From IMG/VR virus record IMGVR_UViG_3300020426_000015, positions 1 through 36,560 of that record: 36,560 nucleotides of DNA; one strand, 5' to 3'. Below the pieces are notes generated by a model, which was given only the letters and a program-made list of their open reading frames with translations, did no database searches and was not told the DNA's origin. Positions 1-36,560 of this stretch are shown in pieces (positions within the stretch are counted from its first letter, which is position 1; each line of letters starts with the position of its first letter). The stretch is from a virus. Lineage: Duplodnaviria > Caudoviricetes. The position numbers were made by a program, and so were the translations under genes.

Positions 1-594
1 ATATAAAGATTGTTCTGTTTGTGGAGTACCTAGAAAGGTAATTTTACCGTTAGGTTTTAGTATGGCATCAAATTCTTTTACAGCTTCACTTAACTTGTCT
101 CTCATAGGTTGAGTAAAGCTGTTATTTGGTACTTCCACATCATCAGCAATCACTTCATCTGCTCTACTACCTGCCATCTGTCCAAGAACACCCTGAGATT
201 TAACAGAAGGGGCATGATCAGCAGATGCAGGTCCAACATCAAAACTTATCTTTGAGTTTCTCTGAGAGTCTTCTGGACGCAGTGGAGCTAATATTGGCAT
301 CTCATTGATCAACCTCATGGTAAATGTAGAGAAGTTGTCTGCTCTGTCTTTACTTGCAGAGACAACAAGGAACTTCAGTTGTGGATTCATTCTTAGTTTC
401 CACACGACATAGGTAGAAGTTATCCAACTCTTACCCACCCCTCTAAAAGCCTGTATGATCTTTCTACGAGGTCCATGCTGTAAATACTCAGCAATGTCTA
501 ATTGAACTGGTGTGGGGTCAGGTAGGTTAAGATGCCGCCACGTTATGATTAGAAAGTATCTAAAGTCTTGTAATTTCTCAGGAAGCGGTTGCAT
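1..594 (-). CDS. terL: Terminase large subunit, N-terminal ATPase part (runs off the window start; not in the ORF track)
   Basis: Manual translation from ATG at 594: MQPLPEKLQDFRYFL...IIQAFRGVGKSW (Walker A)...GSRADEVIADDVE (Walker B)...FLGTPQTEQSLY, the T7 gp19 motifs. Open to base 1 (198 codons). Confidence 0.96.
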   Translation of the reverse strand, partial: MQPLPEKLQDFRYFLIITWRHLNLPDPTPVQLDIAEYLQHGPRRKIIQAFRGVGKSWITSTYVVWKLRMNPQLKFLVVSASKDRADNFSTFTMRLINEMPILAPLRPEDSQRNSKISFDVGPASADHAPSVKSQGVLGQMAGSRADEVIADDVEVPNNSFTQPMRDKLSEAVKEFDAILKPNGKITFLGTPQTEQSLY

Positions 595-1306
595 AGATAG
601 GTAATATTGTTTGTTCTGTTTTAAAAATATTATTTTTTATATCTTTGTCGTTGTTTTTTCTTTTGATTTTAAAAATATAAATATGTTTACCTGGTGTATT
701 AATATATTCTGCTTGTTTATTTTTAAGTGCTTCTTTAATTTTTAAAGCAAAAGGTTTAATTATTTTTTTATCATCAACTGATCTTATAGTCTTGTCGTGA
801 TATATTTTGTTTTCAAACTTTATAACTTTACCTTTAGATGTTAATCCTTGATAAATAAAATTACTTGCTTTATATATTGTTCCTTGATGATTATGAAAAG
901 GATCAGCGTAAGATACTATTGTTTTATATTTAGTAAATTTTTTTAAGAATTTTATAGTTTTACCAATAAAATAACTTTCTGTATTTTTTTTAGTTTTATC
1001 AATACAACATAATCTTTTTAATTCAATAACTTCTGATTCCTTAGATCCATATTTTTTCCATGTGTTTGCCATAGATAATGAACCATAAATAATTGAACCA
1101 ATTAATTCATTTTTATAAAACAAACCAAATACCAAAGAAACATTTAAACCGTTTACATTATTTGAATAATGCCATTTTTCAATAAAACTTTTTACTCTTT
1201 GAATACTTACAGGTTCAACTGTAAATTCCGTTACTTTTATATTTTGGCAATCTATATCTTTATTAAATGACAAAGATCCAATACTGGGCTGTATGTAACT
1301 TTGCAT
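578..1306 (-). CDS. mom: Mom-family (GNAT-fold) adenine-modification protein
   Basis: Motifs FIEKWHYS, FGLF...GSIIYG, ELKRL, NTESYFIG, IVSYADPFHNHQGTIYKASNF match Mu Mom-like proteins. Visibly more AT-rich than its neighbours. Confidence 0.8.
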   Translation of the reverse strand: MQSYIQPSIGSLSFNKDIDCQNIKVTEFTVEPVSIQRVKSFIEKWHYSNNVNGLNVSLVFGLFYKNELIGSIIYGSLSMANTWKKYGSKESEVIELKRLCCIDKTKKNTESYFIGKTIKFLKKFTKYKTIVSYADPFHNHQGTIYKASNFIYQGLTSKGKVIKFENKIYHDKTIRSVDDKKIIKPFALKIKEALKNKQAEYINTPGKHIYIFKIKRKNNDKDIKNNIFKTEQTILPIYATAS

Positions 1307-1315
1307 GTTATGAAA

Positions 1316-1543
1316 CTATCTTTCTAAAGCAGGTATTACATCAAGGTCTGGAAGGTTTGACATAAGATCTTCCATAGGACTCTTCTCTGTTGGGATACAT
1401 TCAATGCCATTATCTTTTAACAGTTGTCTTGCTACGTTAAGATCACCAGGTTTTGCTTCTCCACTTTTCACCTTGTCTAACAATTCTTGTATGAGAACTG
1501 TATGAAGGTGTTCTAATAATTCTAATTTATTTGCTTTTTCCAT
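1316..1543 (-). CDS. terS: Terminase small subunit (T7 gp18-like)
   Basis: LEHLH...LLDKVKSGEA...DLNVARQLLKDNGI pattern; 75 aa; upstream of terL. Confidence 0.88.
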   Translation of the reverse strand: MEKANKLELLEHLHTVLIQELLDKVKSGEAKPGDLNVARQLLKDNGIECIPTEKSPMEDLMSNLPDLDVIPALER

Positions 1544-1587
1544 AGTTAAAATGTTCTTGCAACCAATATACCTTGTTTTAGAAATTT

Positions 1588-1815
1588 ATGCCCAAGACAG
1601 CTACAGTCGGACAACGATTCAAAATTGATGATCGTGTCGTAAGAAATCATACGATTGGATACACAGGAGGTAAATATAAAAAGAACATAGGAACAGTTAT
1701 AGAAGCCCTTACAAGAGCTAATAAGCTAGGTGTTAATCAATATTATTATAAAGTTCTTTGGGATGATAGAAGGTCATCTGAACACGCTCAGCATAGTCTT
1801 AAACCTGTCGAGTAA
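1588..1815 (+). CDS. Hypothetical small SH3-like beta-barrel protein
   Basis: FKIDDRV...GTVIE...YYYKVLWDD...SL pattern typical of SH3/Tudor-like phage proteins. Opposite strand to most genes. Confidence 0.65.
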   Translation: MPKTATVGQRFKIDDRVVRNHTIGYTGGKYKKNIGTVIEALTRANKLGVNQYYYKVLWDDRRSSEHAQHSLKPVE

Positions 1816-2103
1816 GGTTTTTTTTGTTTTATATTTTTTCTTTTTAGTAGGTTTTATGTTTTTTGTCCTGTGATGTTCTGAAATTTCATAGCGTATGAGT
1901 TTTGTATTCATTTCTGAAATACGATCTATAGCAGCCATGATAAGAAAATCTTGTAGTTTGTTCTCTTTCATCAGTTCAAGACAGACTTCTCTTACAACAG
2001 CATCAGGCATCTGTTTTATTTCTCTTCTTCTAATTTCAATATCAAGTTCTATTTCAGTTGGTGTTTTACCAATAAGAACTTCATAAAATTCTTGATGATT
2101 CAT
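1774..2103 (-). CDS. Hypothetical helical protein, NblA-like candidate
   Basis: TPTEIELDIEIRRREIKQMPDAVVREVCLELMKEN has the helix-loop-helix spacing of NblA, followed by a basic C-terminal extension. Confidence 0.5.
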   Translation of the reverse strand: MNHQEFYEVLIGKTPTEIELDIEIRRREIKQMPDAVVREVCLELMKENKLQDFLIMAAIDRISEMNTKLIRYEISEHHRTKNIKPTKKKKYKTKKTLLDRFKTMLSVFR

Positions 2104-2153
2104 ACTTGTTTACTAGGTACTTTCCAATTATGTATATGTTTGCTAATTTTGAC

Positions 2154-2204
2154 TTGACTACCTCACACAGTCAATAAGCCCTATTACCTCCCTAATAGGG
2201 CTTT
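2154..2204 (+). ncRNA. Candidate Yfr1-like small RNA (two hairpins)
   Basis: TTGACT-ACCTCACAC-AGTCAA hairpin followed by AAGCCCTATTA-CCTCCC-TAATAGGGCTT. ACTACCTCACAC differs from the cyanobacterial Yfr1 motif ACTCCTCACAC by one inserted A. TG-C-TAATTT extended -10 at 2141-2149. Confidence 0.5.
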
Positions 2205-2218
2205 GCTATATAACTATT

Positions 2219-2623
2219 ATGGAAGAACAAAAAAAGAAAAACCCCATACAAAAAATAAAAGAGACTATTGAAGATAAGGAAGAACAATTAGCTTTTATAT
2301 CAGTGGTAGTCCGTTTAGTTGTAGTGGGCTGGAGTGGTTTTATAGTTTCCTTGAACTACATTACTATTCCTGGTTACAGTAACGAACCAAAAGACATTAC
2401 ATTCCCAGCTTCTCTTCTCACTGGAGCGTTAGCCAGCTTTGGCTTGGAGGGTGCTAAAAAACGTGGTGATGGTACATACAAACCTGATGAAAAACCTCTT
2501 AACAAAAAAGAAGTAGAAGAGTTACTAGCATCACAGTCTGGTGGTTATCAAACCGTTAGAATTGAGACACCGATTAAGATTATTGGTGCAGAAATTGTAG
2601 ACCCCGATTCTCCTAAAAAATGA
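2219..2623 (+). CDS. Two-TM membrane protein (possibly holin-like)
   Basis: Hydrophobic segments LAFISVVVRLVVVGWSGFIVSLNY and ITFPASLLTGALASFG; charged termini; ATGA overlap with the next gene. Confidence 0.75.
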   Translation: MEEQKKKNPIQKIKETIEDKEEQLAFISVVVRLVVVGWSGFIVSLNYITIPGYSNEPKDITFPASLLTGALASFGLEGAKKRGDGTYKPDEKPLNKKEVEELLASQSGGYQTVRIETPIKIIGAEIVDPDSPKK

Positions 2624-3147
2624 AAAAATTCTTACCTTTGATTTTACTGGCATTTCCAACAGCTAGTTTTGCAGACATCACTCATTCAATCCAATCAGTT
2701 GCGTCAGTCTCAACAGTCGCAGCTTCAGCAACAAGTGAGCGTATTGGATCCTCTATAAGTGTAGCTGGCACGAATGTAACACCAAAAGCTAATACAGTAG
2801 CAGGTCAGATAGGTTCTCTTGATTTAGCTGATAATGGAATAGCTAACGGAGTTCCTACTGTTGATTATGATACTAGCTTCAATGTAGTCAACACAGGTGA
2901 TGCTTTTTCGGCAAGCGAGACTTACATCCAAGCTGACGCTGTTCCAAGCTTGCTATCCGCCACAGTTACTAATGGGGCAGTTCCATCCTTACCTCTTTTA
3001 GGCAAGAACACAGTAGTTGCAGGTGGTGACCCTGGTTCTGTTGCTATCACGCTAGATAGTGGACAGGCATTAACTGTAAACCTATCTGATATGGGTGCTG
3101 GTACAACTGCAACGCTCCAATCAACAATCACTCTTGGCTTGGATTGA
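2620..3147 (+). CDS. Secreted Ser/Thr/Ala/Gly/Val-rich beta protein
   Basis: Signal peptide MKKFLPLILLAFPTASFA; mature part nearly devoid of basic residues. Confidence 0.85.
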   Translation: MKKFLPLILLAFPTASFADITHSIQSVASVSTVAASATSERIGSSISVAGTNVTPKANTVAGQIGSLDLADNGIANGVPTVDYDTSFNVVNTGDAFSASETYIQADAVPSLLSATVTNGAVPSLPLLGKNTVVAGGDPGSVAITLDSGQALTVNLSDMGAGTTATLQSTITLGLD

Positions 3148-3572
3148 TGAGATGGCTGTTGCTTTTGTTTATAGCTTTTCATAGTTCGTATGCACAGGCT
3201 ACCACTCCTAGGTTTAGTGCGAATCAGATGCAATCTACAAGCAAAAGTGTTTCTACTATCAATGAAACTATTGTCACTGAAAACTACAGGACAGGTTATT
3301 CATATTCAGTTCAAGGACATAATATTAAAGTCACAGAAGATTCTGTCATATCACCTGATGCCACATATACTACAAGTCAGAATACAGGAAAGGTTAGCTT
3401 TCAATGGGTGACACCAGACCTACCAACAAAACCACAGTGGGAGATAGTAACACCAGGGGATTCGTTCAGTCTGGTAGAAAACTTTCTCGCTCCAGGACTA
3501 GACGCAGTATCTATCATTACAAGAAATCAAACCATAGAAACTGTGCAAGACTCTGTAACGCTATTTCAATAG
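3144..3572 (+). CDS. Secreted Ser/Thr-rich beta protein
   Basis: Signal peptide MRWLLLLFIAFHSSYAQA; start overlaps the previous stop; ends VTLFQ. Confidence 0.85.
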   Translation: MMRWLLLLFIAFHSSYAQATTPRFSANQMQSTSKSVSTINETIVTENYRTGYSYSVQGHNIKVTEDSVISPDATYTTSQNTGKVSFQWVTPDLPTKPQWEIVTPGDSFSLVENFLAPGLDAVSIITRNQTIETVQDSVTLFQ

Positions 3573-4180
3573 CTTTATTATGTTCTACACCTGTACATGC
3601 AAACACCACCATTTCATCGCCCAGTTCCAGTAGTCAAGGCACAGTTATAAACAATGGCTATCAAACGATAAATGGAAACTTCCCAACTCATAGATTTTCA
3701 AACGGAATACAATGTCAGTTACCAACATTGGCTTTCACTCCTTTTGTTACTAAAGGGGAGGGTTTTAATACCCCAAGAATTACTACATCAAGAACCAACA
3801 TATATGATACTGCAACGGACAGCGATACAGGCCAGTTGCTTAACCCAGGGAAAATTCTATATGTCGCAGAACAGGAAAGAATAGATCAGACGAACCACAA
3901 CTTATCGTATGGAGCGACTATAAGCTTACAGGTTCCATTAGGTAAAAGGTTTAACAATGAATGTTTGAGGGCTGCACAAGCTTACAGAAAGACACAAGAG
4001 TTTATGTTAGAGGCAAAGCGTTTAGAGGTTAATCTCAATCGTGCCAAAGTTTGTGGAGCTATGTTGAGGGAAGGTATTAAGTTTGTAGGAGATGATGCTA
4101 TATCTTGTAGAAATATTGTTCTTACTACAATTCCAGATCAGATATTACCTCACACACACGAAATAAAGACAAAAAAATAA
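3404..4180 (+). CDS. Probable secreted Cys-containing envelope protein; true start uncertain
   Basis: Signal-like AISIALLCSTPVHA at about 3560-3601; amphipathic strand LSYGATISLQVPLG; four Cys in the mature part. No ATG/GTG/TTG close to the signal sequence. Confidence 0.75.
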   Translation: MGDTRPTNKTTVGDSNTRGFVQSGRKLSRSRTRRSIYHYKKSNHRNCARLCNAISIALLCSTPVHANTTISSPSSSSQGTVINNGYQTINGNFPTHRFSNGIQCQLPTLAFTPFVTKGEGFNTPRITTSRTNIYDTATDSDTGQLLNPGKILYVAEQERIDQTNHNLSYGATISLQVPLGKRFNNECLRAAQAYRKTQEFMLEAKRLEVNLNRAKVCGAMLREGIKFVGDDAISCRNIVLTTIPDQILPHTHEIKTKK

Positions 4181-4337
4181 GCAATCAAACGATCCAAACT
4201 TGCAGAGGTTTATTAAAAACATGTCGTGTGTGTTAGCACACTTTCTAGTAAGGGAAGATTGCTTAAAAACAACTGTCGACTAGGGTTTTTAATCCTAACG
4301 TCTTCTCATCATGGAGCAACCCATGAAACAGTTGTGT
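4171..4337 (-). ncRNA. Candidate structured non-coding RNA (two branched domains, U7 tail)
   Basis: Stems ACAACTGT/ACAGTTGT (4269-4276/4328-4335), TCATGG/CCATGA, GAC-TAGG/CCTA-GTC, TAAGCAATC/GATTGCTTA (4178-4186/4257-4265), GTGTG/CACAC; near-consensus promoter directly upstream. Confidence 0.6.
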
Positions 4338-4342
4338 TCTTT

Positions 4343-4370
4343 ATTATATACAAAATATCAACTAAGTCAA
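4343..4370 (-). promoter_or_regulatory. Host sigma70-type promoter
   Basis: TTGACT-N16-TATAAT on the minus strand, just downstream of a terminator. Confidence 0.75.
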
Positions 4371-4375
4371 TTCAT

Positions 4376-4410
4376 AAAAAAACCACCTAATAACCCAGAA
4401 AAAGGTGGTT
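4376..4410 (-). terminator. Intrinsic terminator
   Basis: AACCACCT...AGGTGGTT stem followed by a T-run on the minus strand, downstream of the 228-aa ORF. Confidence 0.65.
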
Positions 4411-4466
4411 GATGTGATTTATTTTTGAATCAAGCTTATCTTAACTAATAATATTTTATGGGCAAG

Positions 4467-5153
4467 TCAACGGCCCTTGTTATTCTTGCCCTTATTTAAT
4501 TTAGCAATTATTTTCTTAAATATTGTTTTACTTGCAGATTTCACGATAGGTAAAAGAAGTGGAGTACTGGCAGCAATGAAAGACACAGCAACAACATTAA
4601 GAGCAGCAGCAGGCGTTGGTAATACCGATTTAAGGAAAGTGACTTCTTCAAGGATTGGTATGCAATCATATCCATTATCTGCTCTTTTATATTCTTTTAT
4701 ACGTTCTGTTCTTAAATCTGATGTAAAACTTCCAACTGGTAATACTCTTGATAAGTCAGGACATGGTGGTGGTTCCTGTTCATCCTTATCGTCATCCTTT
4801 GGTGGCATAAATGCACCCTTCAGTTTTATGCCTGATGAATATTTTGATGAGCTTTCTGTTTCTATTGTGTCATTTGGATCGTAAACAATAGATCTGATCT
4901 TCTGTCTTTCTGCTTTTGGTGCAGTAGTTTTCTCTTCTTCAACAGGTGCAGTGGCAGTTATCGGTCCTTGAGGACAGGTTGCATATTGCTTACGGTTATA
5001 AAAAACTATAGTTGGATTTTGAGTTATCTTCAGATCTCTATCAACTAAATCACAGGCAGGTTGCACACCTGTTAAAACAAATTCAGTGACAAAAGGAACA
5101 GAAGGTATATCAACAGTTGGTATCGTTATCTTCGGTACTTTTATACTTGGCAC
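4467..5153 (-). CDS. Pro-rich, Cys-containing protein with C-terminal membrane anchor
   Basis: GTG start overlapping the upstream stop; IKVPKITIPTVDIP repeats; PPPCP; hydrophobic AAALNVVAVSFIAASTPLLLPIV then a Lys-rich tail. Confidence 0.8.
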   Translation of the reverse strand: MPSIKVPKITIPTVDIPSVPFVTEFVLTGVQPACDLVDRDLKITQNPTIVFYNRKQYATCPQGPITATAPVEEEKTTAPKAERQKIRSIVYDPNDTIETESSSKYSSGIKLKGAFMPPKDDDKDEQEPPPCPDLSRVLPVGSFTSDLRTERIKEYKRADNGYDCIPILEEVTFLKSVLPTPAAALNVVAVSFIAASTPLLLPIVKSASKTIFKKIIAKLNKGKNNKGR

Positions 5154-5368
5154 TAAAACTTAGGTATAGATATACCAGTGCTGCTAGGCATTGCTTTATC
5201 TAAAGCTTTTGGCATGAGTCCTGATACTTTACCCATAACCTTTTCCATCATCATCTTTTCAAACTGTGGGCTGGTTAAGTAACGATATCCTGCATATGCT
5301 CCACCTAAAGTTGAAATGCTAATAACAAACGATACGATAGATAAGATAGAAGAAATTTTATTTAACAT
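5153..5368 (-). CDS. Single-TM membrane protein (71 aa; start revised to 5368)
   Basis: MLNKISSILSIVSFVISISTLGGAYAGYRYL then an amphipathic Met-rich helix. Confidence 0.75.
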   Translation of the reverse strand: MLNKISSILSIVSFVISISTLGGAYAGYRYLTSPQFEKMMMEKVMGKVSGLMPKALDKAMPSSTGISIPKF

Positions 5369-5498
5369 GATTAGAGATGCATTTTTAAAGGCATTAGTGC
5401 CTGTTACCATTATAACCTTTGTGTCTGTAATGGCTATTGCACCTCTATATGTCACGTTAAGTATGATGACTAGAAGCTATACTTCAAGCCAACCTTAG
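5367..5498 (+). CDS. Small single-TM peptide (43 aa)
   Basis: MIRDAFLKALVPVTIITFVSVMAIAPLYVTLSMMTR; fills the gap between two minus-strand genes; ATG overlaps the ATG of the divergent gene. Confidence 0.55.
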   Translation: MIRDAFLKALVPVTIITFVSVMAIAPLYVTLSMMTRSYTSSQP

Positions 5499-5829
5499 TT
5501 CCGTATGTATTAACGTCATCTGTTACAACAGCGAACTCACCATAAGCATTTAACTTATCGCTAAGATCATATCCGCCACCAACTTTACCAGAAAGCTTAG
5601 TGTCAGAATCTCCTACAGAAGGATTGATGAAACTAGGACCACCTTGTAGGTAGAACGATCCATTCTCTCCAACAGTATTTTCGTAACCGATATGGAGGTC
5701 TATAACATTACCACCCCAGTCGGAGCCTACGTTTGTTTGATTAAATTCCGGGTTTAAATAGAAACCTGCATAAGCTGGAACGCTAAGTGCTACAGATGCA
5801 GCAGATAGTGTTAAAACTTTCTTTAGCAT
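5470..5829 (-). CDS. Small outer-membrane beta-barrel (porin/OMP-like) protein
   Basis: Signal peptide ending PAYA; alternating Gly/aromatic strands; C-terminal YGTKVGLKYSF is a BAM-type beta-signal ending in Phe. Confidence 0.85.
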   Translation of the reverse strand: MLKKVLTLSAASVALSVPAYAGFYLNPEFNQTNVGSDWGGNVIDLHIGYENTVGENGSFYLQGGPSFINPSVGDSDTKLSGKVGGGYDLSDKLNAYGEFAVVTDDVNTYGTKVGLKYSF

Positions 5830-32803: not shown

Positions 32804-32933
32804 GCTTTGACAGTCTCCATGCTTCAATAAGACATTCCAATTCAAAAATTCTTAGTTTTGCATTAGCTATCTTCTCATCTATTACCTTGTTACGTTCGTA
32901 TTTATACTTGTTAAAGTTAATTACCTTTGACAT
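32796..32933 (-). CDS. Hypothetical early protein (45 aa)
   Basis: Manual translation MSKVINFNKYKYERNKVIDEKIANAKLRIFELECLIEAWRLSKHE; overlaps both neighbours. Confidence 0.7.
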   Translation of the reverse strand: MSKVINFNKYKYERNKVIDEKIANAKLRIFELECLIEAWRLSKHE

Positions 32934-33186
32934 CTGTTGTTCTGTACTGTTTTATAAGTTCGGTAAGGTCTGTTAATAGATCATCACATTGACTGCGTAA
33001 ATCCACCACAGATTCCTTATCCTCATCAATCAACTTAGCAAGTTCCTCCAGGCTGTATTCTCTTGTGCTAAAAAACTTACCACAAGCTTTACAAGTCCTT
33101 GATCTCCACACATAGTTTGCGTTAGGTCTTTGTCTTACCTGTGGTGAAATAGTATCAACACTGCCGCATTTAGGACATTGAATCAT
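32917..33186 (-). CDS. NrdR-like zinc-ribbon protein without ATP cone
   Basis: CPKCG..DT...VWRSRTCKACGKFFSTRE mirrors NrdR CPxC...IRRRRECxxCxxRFTTxE; followed by a short acidic coiled coil; AGGAG RBS. Confidence 0.75.
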   Translation of the reverse strand: MIQCPKCGSVDTISPQVRQRPNANYVWRSRTCKACGKFFSTREYSLEELAKLIDEDKESVVDLRSQCDDLLTDLTELIKQYRTTDVKGN

Positions 33187-35823: not shown

Positions 35824-36560
35824 CTAATAAGTGTTGCTTATAAATCCATCGTTAGAGGTATTAGAATTTCTTATCTGTGCAGGTGTAAGACCTAGTGCTG
35901 TTTGTGTAACAGAATTGTTAATAGAGGAACCCCAGTTATCTAGGTGAATGGAAAGTAATTCTTCTTTACGAGATCTTATATTACGGTCTTCATCCTGGTT
36001 CATATATTCAGTCCAGTAAGCAACTGCCCCTGATAGAGCGTCTAAGATGTCATCGTGTACTAGAGAACCTCTATGTTTAGTTATGCGAGACATTTGATAG
36101 AAGAGTTGAAGTTTTAATTTTCTTTCTGGAGCTTCGTTAGGATTAGATCTATAGTCTTTTTCTACGACTTTACGGTCGAATATAAGCCTGTGAGAGTTCA
36201 TAACGGGTTCTAGGGTATCTATTATGCGTAGTTCTTTGGTTTTATTGTTGCGTACGTCTTGTACTTCACAGGGGTGATACCTCATAAGGAAGGGTTTTAA
36301 GAGTTCAGCGAACATACCGCCACCCATATTTGATTCAACGAGTATGGTATTTACTTTATTTGTCTTGGCTATCTTGGAGAGAGTTGTTAATACAGCGTCT
36401 GAGTATCCTCCGTTTAGTCCACCAGCGTCTGGGACGTAGAGGTTACCGTTAAGCATCTTTACTACAGCGTATCCTGTTGCGTCACGTCCTTTTCCTGAGG
36501 GGTCAATGAACATTACAGAGCCTGTATATTCAATCCAATCACCAAATTGCTGTGCAGGTC
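35824..36560 (-). CDS. terL: Terminase large subunit, C-terminal nuclease part (runs off the window end)
   Basis: FIDPSGKGRDATG, VESNMGGGMF, KELRIIDTLEPV, LVHDDILDAL; frame open to the window edge. Confidence 0.96.
   Translation of the reverse strand, partial: PAQQFGDWIEYTGSVMFIDPSGKGRDATGYAVVKMLNGNLYVPDAGGLNGGYSDAVLTTLSKIAKTNKVNTILVESNMGGGMFAELLKPFLMRYHPCEVQDVRNNKTKELRIIDTLEPVMNSHRLIFDRKVVEKDYRSNPNEAPERKLKLQLFYQMSRITKHRGSLVHDDILDALSGAVAYWTEYMNQDEDRNIRSRKEELLSIHLDNWGSSINNSVTQTALGLTPAQIRNSNTSNDGFISNTY

Follow-up and report, generated by a model that had tools for sequence, protein, structure and literature searches.

Protein regulators are scarce in Prochlorococcus, which depends on small RNAs; among these, Yfr1, Yfr10 and Yfr2 form the best-studied RNA network, concerned with carbon and nitrogen metabolism and with outer-membrane porins. 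Here we describe an RNA element at positions 2122–2204 of the virus record IMGVR_UViG_3300020426_000015 (the window, a stretch of 36,560 bases), in which a Yfr1-type seed lies in a hairpin loop upstream of a four-gene operon. A preliminary description of this DNA had proposed a phage-encoded, Yfr1-like small RNA that silences host porins. Comparative analysis indicates that the element belongs to a phage-specific (cyanopodovirus) RNA family, and we give about even weight, for and against, to a seed-dependent interaction of the element with host RNAs, with som as the most plausible target for the variant found in the window.

In the host, the som porin mRNAs PMM1119 and PMM1121 are repressed by Yfr1, which pairs with them at the ribosome-binding site; seed changes in CC or UCCU are reported to abolish this repression (PMC2796815). 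Host Yfr1 and Yfr10 are described as pairing with their targets via a shared seed (PMC2796815, PMC6778093), and Yfr2 as binding Yfr1 and Yfr10 more tightly than those bind an mRNA target (PMC6778093). The motif is unpaired between the 5' and 3' stem-loops in Yfr1 (PMC2190773), and it lies in the loop on a stem in Yfr10 (PMC6778093).

Promoter and hairpins of the element

The element starts with a putative host-type promoter on the plus strand, with the -35 hexamer TTCCAA at 2122–2127 and an extended -10 element, TG-C-TAATTT, at 2141–2149 (TG at 2141–2142, hexamer at 2144–2149). The spacer between the two hexamers is 16 nucleotides (nt), and the promoter can also be written TTCCAA-N13-TGCTAATTT. 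In relatives the -35 hexamer or a close variant of it is kept and TGCTAnnnT is conserved. From the spacing, transcription is predicted to start at the G of UUGACU (2156, plus strand), 7 nt past the -10 hexamer. Hairpin 1 (2154–2174) has a stem of 6 base pairs (bp), formed by TTGACT at 2154–2159 and AGTCAA at 2169–2174, and a loop of 9 nt, ACCTCACAC at 2160–2168 (ACCUCACAC as RNA); the seed CCUCACACAG occupies 2161–2170. Hairpin 2 (2176–2204) has a stem of 11 pairs, four of them G-C, between 2176–2186 and 2193–2203, and the loop CCTCCC (CCUCCC as RNA) at 2187–2192. It is followed by TTTG CTAT, that is three U and then G, which makes it terminator-like with a short U tail. The RNA of 2150–2218 folds at -18.4 kcal/mol (z = -4.51), and none of 200 dinucleotide shuffles equalled this value.

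The promoter with its extended -10 TG and the two hairpins, as read from the letters in the preliminary description, were found in place, and the promoter is conserved in relatives. Its caveats were also borne out, since the seed lies in the loop of hairpin 1, only UUU precedes the G, and the extra A is a one-base register shift, with UUGACU-A-CCUCACAC-AGUCAA in the window versus UUGACU-CCUCACACA-AGUCAA in most relatives. The ultraconserved 11-nt Yfr1 motif ACUCCUCACAC is not complete in the window, which reads ACU-A-CCUCACAC and retains the 9 contiguous bases CCUCACACA.

Neither the promoter of 2122–2149 nor hairpin 2 as a terminator was listed by a generic consensus scan of the window. TTCCAA and TAATTT each match the E. 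coli consensus at only three of six positions, and the same scan found 10 promoter-like sites in 1500–4700 against 10.1 expected. The candidate promoter rests on its conservation and its link to the motif, rather than on a consensus match; host Yfr10 genes have a similar box, TAGATT, about 6 nt before the RNA start. A possible second extended -10, TGCTATATA, is located at 2204–2212 on the plus strand and could, speculatively, start a leaderless mRNA at A2219; variants in this region of relatives are TGTTATATA and TGTCATATA.

The octamer-type core CCTCACAC occurs twice in the window, at 2161 and 4148 on the plus strand, with 0.62 expected from shuffles and two or more copies in 10 of 100 shuffles. 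Its count in the window alone lacks significance, and support comes from the relatives. The second copy (4148–4155) falls within the closing part of the operon's last gene (3404–4180), near its 3' end, and in four relatives (L001, L021, L046 and L052) CCTCACAC follows the gene start at a distance of about 1,900 nt.

A phage RNA family on two scaffolds

The first gene of the downstream operon encodes a DUF6450 protein, for which 368 relatives were confirmed in viral contigs. A promoter block, TTCCAA, TTTCAA or TTGCTT followed by TG(C/T)TAnnnT, is kept upstream of the DUF6450 gene in the loci compared, which were drawn from the best 80 of these relatives. The leader behind it is mostly about 20 nt long and without hairpins, including that of the isolate P-SCSP2, and some loci carry an insert. 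Two loci (L008 and L009) have a long leader that lacks the seed, in which the promoter is followed by a hairpin ATAAGC...GCTTAT with a T6 run and then 30 nt more to the ATG.

We scanned all viral contigs for TTCCAA-N12-14-TGCTA-N10-40-CCTCACACA, demanding the exact TTCCAA. This pattern was found at 78 loci, versus two in a control with the same promoter and the reversed motif, and background patterns with a spacer of N15-17 between TTCCAA and TGCTA gave four and four loci. The association between promoter and motif is thus far above background. The 78 loci comprised 27 that we term class A, 48 that we term class B and three that were chance-like; the longest contig among them (37,734 bases) fits podoviruses of MPP-C size. 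The leader of the P-SCSP1 phages was missed by the scan owing to a -35 box of the TTTACA type, which implies that the family is larger than 75 loci. The conservation and covariation that the preliminary description had asked about in related phages were both seen, in the 78 loci versus two and in the stems described below.

Class A is defined by the promoter TTCCAA-N13-TGCTAnnnT, a hairpin (U/A)UGAC...GUCA with a CUCACAC-bearing loop, and a second hairpin beginning A(A/G)(C/U)CC... with a C-rich loop and a U tail. The window element belongs to this class and aligns with 22 relatives. Hairpins were parsed sequence by sequence in 32 distinct class A-like sequences, the window included, taken from 47 locus rows; RNAalifold on a MAFFT alignment missed the hairpins because the rows of the window type and of the AUGAC type were shifted. 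Stem and loop of hairpin 1 are kept across all 32 sequences, with the CUCACAC core in 28. Most have UUGACU-CCUCACACA-AGUCAA and with it an exact copy of the Yfr1 motif, ACUCCUCACAC. The window-type form UUGACU-ACCUCACAC-AGUCAA is found in five of the 32, the window among them, and exact window-type copies in six viral contigs. Three sequences have AUGAC-CUCACACA-GUCAU, with one compensatory pair; the remainder are one sequence with a single change in the motif and three with other loops.

Hairpin 2 of class A covaries (GCCCUA/UAGGGC, GUCCUA/UAGGAC, ACCCUAU/AUAGGGU and GCCUGA/UCAGGC) and retains its C-rich loop, and it has G-U pairs that fit the plus-strand RNA only. Behind it, most copies have U5-7 in the manner of an intrinsic terminator, and window-type copies joined to DUF6450 no more than UUUG. 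Of the 27 class A loci in the scan, six are directly before a DUF6450 gene. Eight are free-standing: the DUF6450 gene lies about 312 nt further downstream and has a separate promoter, with a convergent 76-aa open reading frame (ORF) in between. The other 13 have no DUF6450 match at E <= 1e-5, and the 12 of these that were inspected lie 40–51 nt before genes of shorter membrane proteins beginning MEEQ, MEDQ or MEEK. The free-standing copies look like small RNA genes and, bearing a terminator, argue for a small RNA that acts in trans.

Class B (33 distinct sequences) consists of 5' leaders with an outer stem of 10 pairs, six of which show compensatory changes, such as C-G to G-C in six sequences and U-A to C-G in 13. 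The inner hairpin is also variable, and (U/C)CUCCUCACACA is invariant on the 3' side. The start codon lies 5–8 nt past the outer stem, there is no U tail, and the G-U pairs would be A-C mismatches on the other strand. The class B motif is unambiguously part of a 5' untranslated region (UTR). A class B leader was matched in all 17 cultured P-SCSP1 isolates, whose host is MED4; in P-SCSP1u it precedes PSCSP1u_00033, behind the TTTACA-type -35 box. The two scaffolds both present the motif unpaired, with covariation in their stems, and the class B leaders, together with the class A copies adjoining genes, indicate that the same seed also travels on mRNA.

Copies of the module were not found in several other places. 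Rfam at E <= 1 gave no match at the elements of five class A and class B loci, and blastn of class A against cultured phages gave none. BLAST of class A against 201 Prochlorococcus genomes returned no full-length copy, only short weak matches that mostly covered the promoter part. In the cyanomyoviruses P-HM1 and P-SSM4 the homologous gene is within an operon, with about 10–34 nt upstream of it and no space for the module.

Predicted pairing with host RNAs

In two genomes of wild Prochlorococcus, UGUGUGAGG is located 6–7 nt before the start codons of Som-type porin genes; the PMM1121 leader oligonucleotide is reported likewise to have UGUGUGAGG before the start codon (PMC6778093). The first genome (G001) has eight UGUGUGAGG sites, of which five are antisense to Yfr genes and two of the other three lie 7 nt before porin ORFs of 375 aa and 377 aa. 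These two ORFs match NCBIfam por_somb with E values of 6e-14 and 7e-21, below the curated cut-off, and Pfam OprB only at sub-threshold level. The second genome (G004) has seven sites, four antisense to Yfr genes and one 6 nt before a Som-type ORF of 378 aa. A further site in G004, CGUGUGAGG, precedes a second ORF of the MKLFK type, and the antisense of the ppa site is also present. By sequence, the phage seed is perfectly complementary to host som ribosome-binding sites, and the window RNA can match two of the three som sites tested over 10 contiguous bases.

Unrestricted duplexfold gave long, meaningless duplexes, and a seed-restricted calculation was used in its place. Energies (kcal/mol) from this simplified scheme of our own, which sums hybrid and opening energies and includes no genome-wide background, were -11.2, -7.2 and -10.8 for the window RNA (2156–2207) with som sites 1, 2 and 3, compared with -12.6, -8.7 and -10.8 for host Yfr1 and -12.5, -8.6 and -10.8 for host Yfr10. 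The typical class A sequence gave -10.7, -7.4 and -9.0, and class B gave -12.9, -8.8 and -5.9. With the 5' end of Yfr2, the values were -16.0 for Yfr1, -15.5 for Yfr10, -13.6 for typical class A and -10.7 for class B, and -4.3 and -2.0 for the window RNA with the two Yfr2 copies. The predicted pairing of the phage seed with som is therefore close in energy to that of host Yfr1 and Yfr10, and the window variant is predicted to keep porin pairing and to lose most of the Yfr2 pairing.

Another possible role of hairpin 1, as a mimic of the anticodon arm of tRNA-Val, was rejected, as no tRNA was present at the 14 host CCTCACAC sites examined in the two genomes. On contig C4 of G004, around 162359 (L132), we also observed a hairpin AGCAGCCC[ACUCCUCACACGUAA]GGGCUGCU followed by U9, in which the Yfr1 motif is located in the loop of a terminator-like hairpin that has no Rfam match.

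Genome context of the element

The window has an estimated completeness of 99% (CheckV) and carries a T7-like gene set on the minus strand, which includes RNA polymerase, a Gp2.5-like single-strand-binding protein, endonuclease I, primase/helicase and exonuclease, as well as portal, scaffold, capsid, tail tube, nozzle, internal virion proteins, tail fibre and terminase. Among the ORFs of the window that were scanned, none matched a DNA polymerase family; this holds for the whole set just named. Its capsid protein shares 92.1% identity with the capsid protein of the Prochlorococcus phage P-SCSP2, the closest isolate, whose host is MED4, in agreement with the Prochlorococcus host assumed earlier. 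P-SCSP2 is an MPP-C cyanopodovirus, and the MPP-C clade is described as being without DNA polymerase (PMC9860041). In sum, the window is the nearly complete genome of a T7-like Prochlorococcus podovirus of the MPP-C type.

The element is located in a divergent spacer of 115 bases between a gene of 109 aa (1774–2103, minus strand), whose start codon is 18 nt before the -35 hexamer, and the operon (2219–4180, plus strand), which is on the strand opposite to all other window genes. The product of the 109-aa gene had no family match in the library scans, and homologous ORFs (MNH(K/Q)EF...) are found upstream of class A units in relatives. The operon consists of the gene of the DUF6450 membrane protein (2219–2623), a second gene (2620–3147) and a third, DUF6322 gene (3144–3572), both with an N-terminal hydrophobic leader judged by eye only to be a signal peptide, and the gene of a phrog_848 protein (3404–4180). 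Adjoining it on the minus strand, at 4467–5829, are three genes of cyanomyovirus type, phrog_570, the 'plasmid stability' phrog_568 and a Phage_OMP beta-barrel (PF24653, E 8e-35), whose hydrophobic N-terminal leader resembles a signal peptide by eye. The genes of 4467–5829 and 2219–4180 form an envelope-protein module. The operon and the minus-strand genes converge on a spacer that holds, at 4226–4241, a terminator-like hairpin, GTGTGTGTTAGCACAC, readable on both strands.

Several further features of the record were observed. The large terminase gene is split over both window ends on the minus strand, with the N-terminal ATPase at 1–594 and the RNaseH-like nuclease at 35824–36513, which shows circular permutation of the record. 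A gene for Mom-like DNA modification (578–1306, minus strand; PF25680, E 7e-38) lies between the small and large terminase genes, and a small NrdR-like zinc ribbon protein (PF22811, E 7e-7) is encoded at 32917–33186 on the minus strand, directly upstream of the RNA polymerase gene. In P-SCSP1u (L247, 2324–2485 and 408–2150) the class B leader and operon are co-oriented with the large terminase, whereas the window operon is opposite to its terminase, so the orientation of the module to the packaging genes varies among MPP-C phages.

Possible transcription of the element and competing explanations

RNA evidence came from assembled contigs of four metatranscriptome runs, which cannot show RNA ends or abundance and may contain DNA; stretches without RNA-contig cover were not counted as evidence. 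A contig of 235 nt from run X20 (record 24) spans 2156–2390 and starts exactly 7 nt past the -10 hexamer. Two contigs from a single sample (X15 record 5 and X18 record 9) cover 1823–2373 and 1860–2363. At a free-standing class A locus (L179), an X20 contig has its end at the corresponding G of UUGACU, apart from two further letters that do not align, and the next contig begins just outside the -35 box, which leaves the 35-base promoter uncovered. These contigs hint, weakly, at promoter activity in the sea and at read-through. Run X15 also contained 31-base contigs, at a depth of up to 700, on the T-rich stretch 1816–1847 at the 3' end of the 109-aa gene, and these may be low-complexity matches from other organisms.

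In the explanation that we prefer, host RNA polymerase would transcribe the two-hairpin module of about 50 nt from around 2156, as the 5' end of the envelope operon. A fraction of the transcripts would end at hairpin 2, a predicted terminator, and form a small RNA. Its CCUCACACA(G) could then pair in trans with host RNAs, most plausibly with the ribosome-binding sites of som porin mRNAs. A more elaborate version is tentative, and we think it rather unlikely in its entirety. According to it, MPP-C modules on two scaffolds would copy the Yfr1/Yfr10 seed, shut down Som porins and mostly titrate Yfr2, as the operon installs phage envelope proteins, and the register shift in the window would keep porin pairing and drop Yfr2 pairing, yielding a mimic that the host antagonist cannot sponge.

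Several observations weigh against a trans-acting small RNA. The match of 8–10 nt is short, and the energies come from the simplified scheme described above. No sign of a discrete short RNA was seen in the RNA-library contigs over the window and L179, which cannot show RNA ends. Three of these contigs (X15, X18 and X20) bridge hairpin 2 into the 2219 gene, and at L179 the X20 contig runs through the terminator. The gene start lies about 10–20 nt past hairpin 2 at 19 of the 27 class A loci, so the class A unit must also serve as a gene leader. The window copy itself is atypical, with its seed shifted by one A and its three U before G. The module is also dispensable, as only 15 class A-like and four class B loci were present in a sample chosen by protein alone (the best 80 of the 368 DUF6450 loci), and in P-SCSP2, the closest isolate, the leader is short and lacks the motif. 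In those 15 class A-like loci, CCTCACAC is intact in 10, one base off in one (L016) and replaced in four (L018, L029, L049 and L050).

The strongest competitor is a purely cis-acting 5' leader, which would stabilise the operon mRNA, tune its translation or attenuate transcription. In that case a protein, or host Yfr2 with its nearly complementary 5' end, would dock at the motif on the phage mRNA, such that host state controls the phage operon without any effect on host mRNAs. The plain 5' UTRs at all 48 class B loci, with a start codon 5–8 nt past the stem and no U tail, are in keeping with such a leader, as are the nearby genes at 19 of the 27 class A loci and the read-through of hairpin 2. 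Pairing with the 5' end of Yfr2 is predicted to be good for typical class A and class B (the -13.6 and -10.7 kcal/mol given above), and the described binding of Yfr1 and Yfr10 by Yfr2, tighter than that of an mRNA target (PMC6778093), points the same way. The eight free-standing class A loci do not fit, because a convergent ORF follows their terminator and there is thus no gene to regulate in cis. The window variant pairs poorly with Yfr2 by the same calculation, but with som as well as Yfr1 does, and roles in cis and in trans are compatible. The earlier caveat that the element may just be the leader of the 2219 operon accordingly holds in part: contigs run from 2156 into the gene and the class B motif is in a 5' UTR, whereas the eight free-standing loci speak against its being only that. 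We regard an exclusively cis-acting leader as a minority possibility, though one to be taken seriously.

It is improbable that the window unit is a decaying copy, a relic whose sole remaining role is to supply the 2219 operon with a spacer and a promoter. Its shifted seed and U3 tail would agree with decay, as would the four loci that have lost the seed and kept the hairpins (L018, L029, L049 and L050) and the many relatives without the module. However, the window-type loop is found in five distinct sequences and at least seven contigs, whose hairpin 2 sequences differ and one of which has a U6 tail (L169). This recurrence of the loop with differing second hairpins argues that the variant is maintained, and its 10 contiguous bases are still complementary to two of the three som sites.

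Capture of a true Yfr1 or Yfr10 homologue from a Prochlorococcus genome would account for the shared motif, the Yfr10-like order of the hairpins and the similar size (about 52 nt versus 54 nt for Yfr1), but it is very improbable given the covariance models. We used the Rfam 15 models of Yfr1 (RF01116, gathering threshold 38 bits), Yfr10 (RF02362, 43 bits) and Cyano-1/Yfr2 (RF01701). In single-cell genomes of wild Prochlorococcus, used as a positive control, these scored 56–59, 58–101 and 66–70 bits, and all five host RF01116 loci were at 56.4–58.8 bits. The whole window had no Rfam match at the gathering threshold, for Yfr1, Yfr10 and Cyano-1 included. At E <= 10, neither Yfr1 nor Yfr10 was matched in 1900–2400, where only chance-level matches such as MIR837 and TCL6_2 appeared. 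The membership in Yfr1 suggested by the preliminary description, for which an Infernal search with the Rfam model had been proposed, was therefore not upheld. A Yfr10 covariance model of our own, built from 14 host copies and searched against the window and 29 phage loci (166,832 bases), gave eight matches at E <= 10, the best of them at unrelated places and none in the window; two window-type relatives scored 13.1 bits (E 5.5). A host-type Yfr10 16-mer had nine matches in viral contigs, all in unrelated-looking contexts and chance-like, and a 25-mer Yfr10 probe had none in genome contigs. By covariance models, the element is no Yfr1 or Yfr10 homologue, and it has no sequence likeness to them beyond the seed.

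That the stretch holds DNA-level signals for the minus strand, either a promoter TTGACT (2174–2169) plus CAAAAT for the 109-aa and terminase genes or hairpin 2 as a terminator, is scarcely credible: the consensus scan does list TTGACT-N17-CAAAAT on the minus strand at 2174–2146 (9 of 12 positions), and the genes at 1774–2103 and of the small terminase subunit, the Mom-like protein and the large terminase subunit need a promoter or read-through, but the region has no more promoter-like matches than chance would give, the G-U pairs of the stem fit plus-strand RNA only, hairpin 2 on the minus strand is followed by UAUUGACU with no U run, and relatives with a short leader lack these signals yet have the same divergent gene.

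Should the preferred explanation of a seed acting on host RNAs be true, a virus-borne copy of the seed would let abundant ocean viruses rewire the regulation and the surface of the host cell directly, and this could include superinfection resistance if porins serve as receptors. The class B leaders of the 17 cultured P-SCSP1 phages are found in viruses that infect MED4, the strain in which Yfr1, Yfr10, Yfr2 and the som and ppa targets have been characterised.

Comparison with known systems

Full-text searches on Yfr1 with cyanophage, on Yfr10 with phage and on the motif found no phage-borne RNA with the Yfr1 motif. The words 'phage' and 'virus' are absent from the Yfr1 motif-search paper, and 'sRNA' and 'promoter' from the MPP-C genome paper. 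We found no report of a seed-bearing phage RNA element of this type in the literature searched; small RNAs of phages and the viral mimicry of seeds are both familiar from other systems.

The phage element shares with Yfr1 the motif (exact in most class A and class B sequences, 9 contiguous bases in the window), a similar length and two hairpins. The motif of Yfr1 is single-stranded between the hairpins, whereas that of the phage element is in the loop of hairpin 1 and is encoded by the phage. In layout the element resembles Yfr10, a small RNA of Prochlorococcus and marine Synechococcus, rather than Yfr1: in both, a 5' hairpin with the seed in its loop is joined by a short linker to a terminator hairpin, and Yfr10 is a small RNA with a host promoter of the TAnnnT type, as in the phage element. 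This is a resemblance of layout only. Stem 1 of Yfr10 has 8 bp and a loop of 15 nt, compared with 6 bp and 9 nt in the phage element, which has no likeness to Yfr10 outside the seed; the window copy further differs in the one-A shift of its seed and in its short U tail. Yfr10 of high-light Prochlorococcus is located about 90 nt before Cyano-1 (Yfr2), whereas the window has no Cyano-1 match and a protein-coding envelope operon follows. Yfr10 is host-encoded; the search of 201 host genomes did not recover the phage element.

A general class of small RNAs arises from 5' UTRs when transcription terminates prematurely, and in this class one promoter could yield both a short RNA and an mRNA. The element has in common with them a promoter, a structured RNA with a terminator-like hairpin and a gene 10–20 nt further on; here no ligand-sensing domain is evident and termination is predicted.

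In other viruses, base pairing is known to reprogramme host expression, as by the prophage small RNAs DicF and AgvB of E. coli and by the herpesvirus microRNAs that copy the seeds of host microRNAs. None of these examples is known to come from a lytic cyanophage or to have a Yfr1 seed, whereas in the family described here the seed is carried by two unrelated scaffolds and is joined to an envelope operon.

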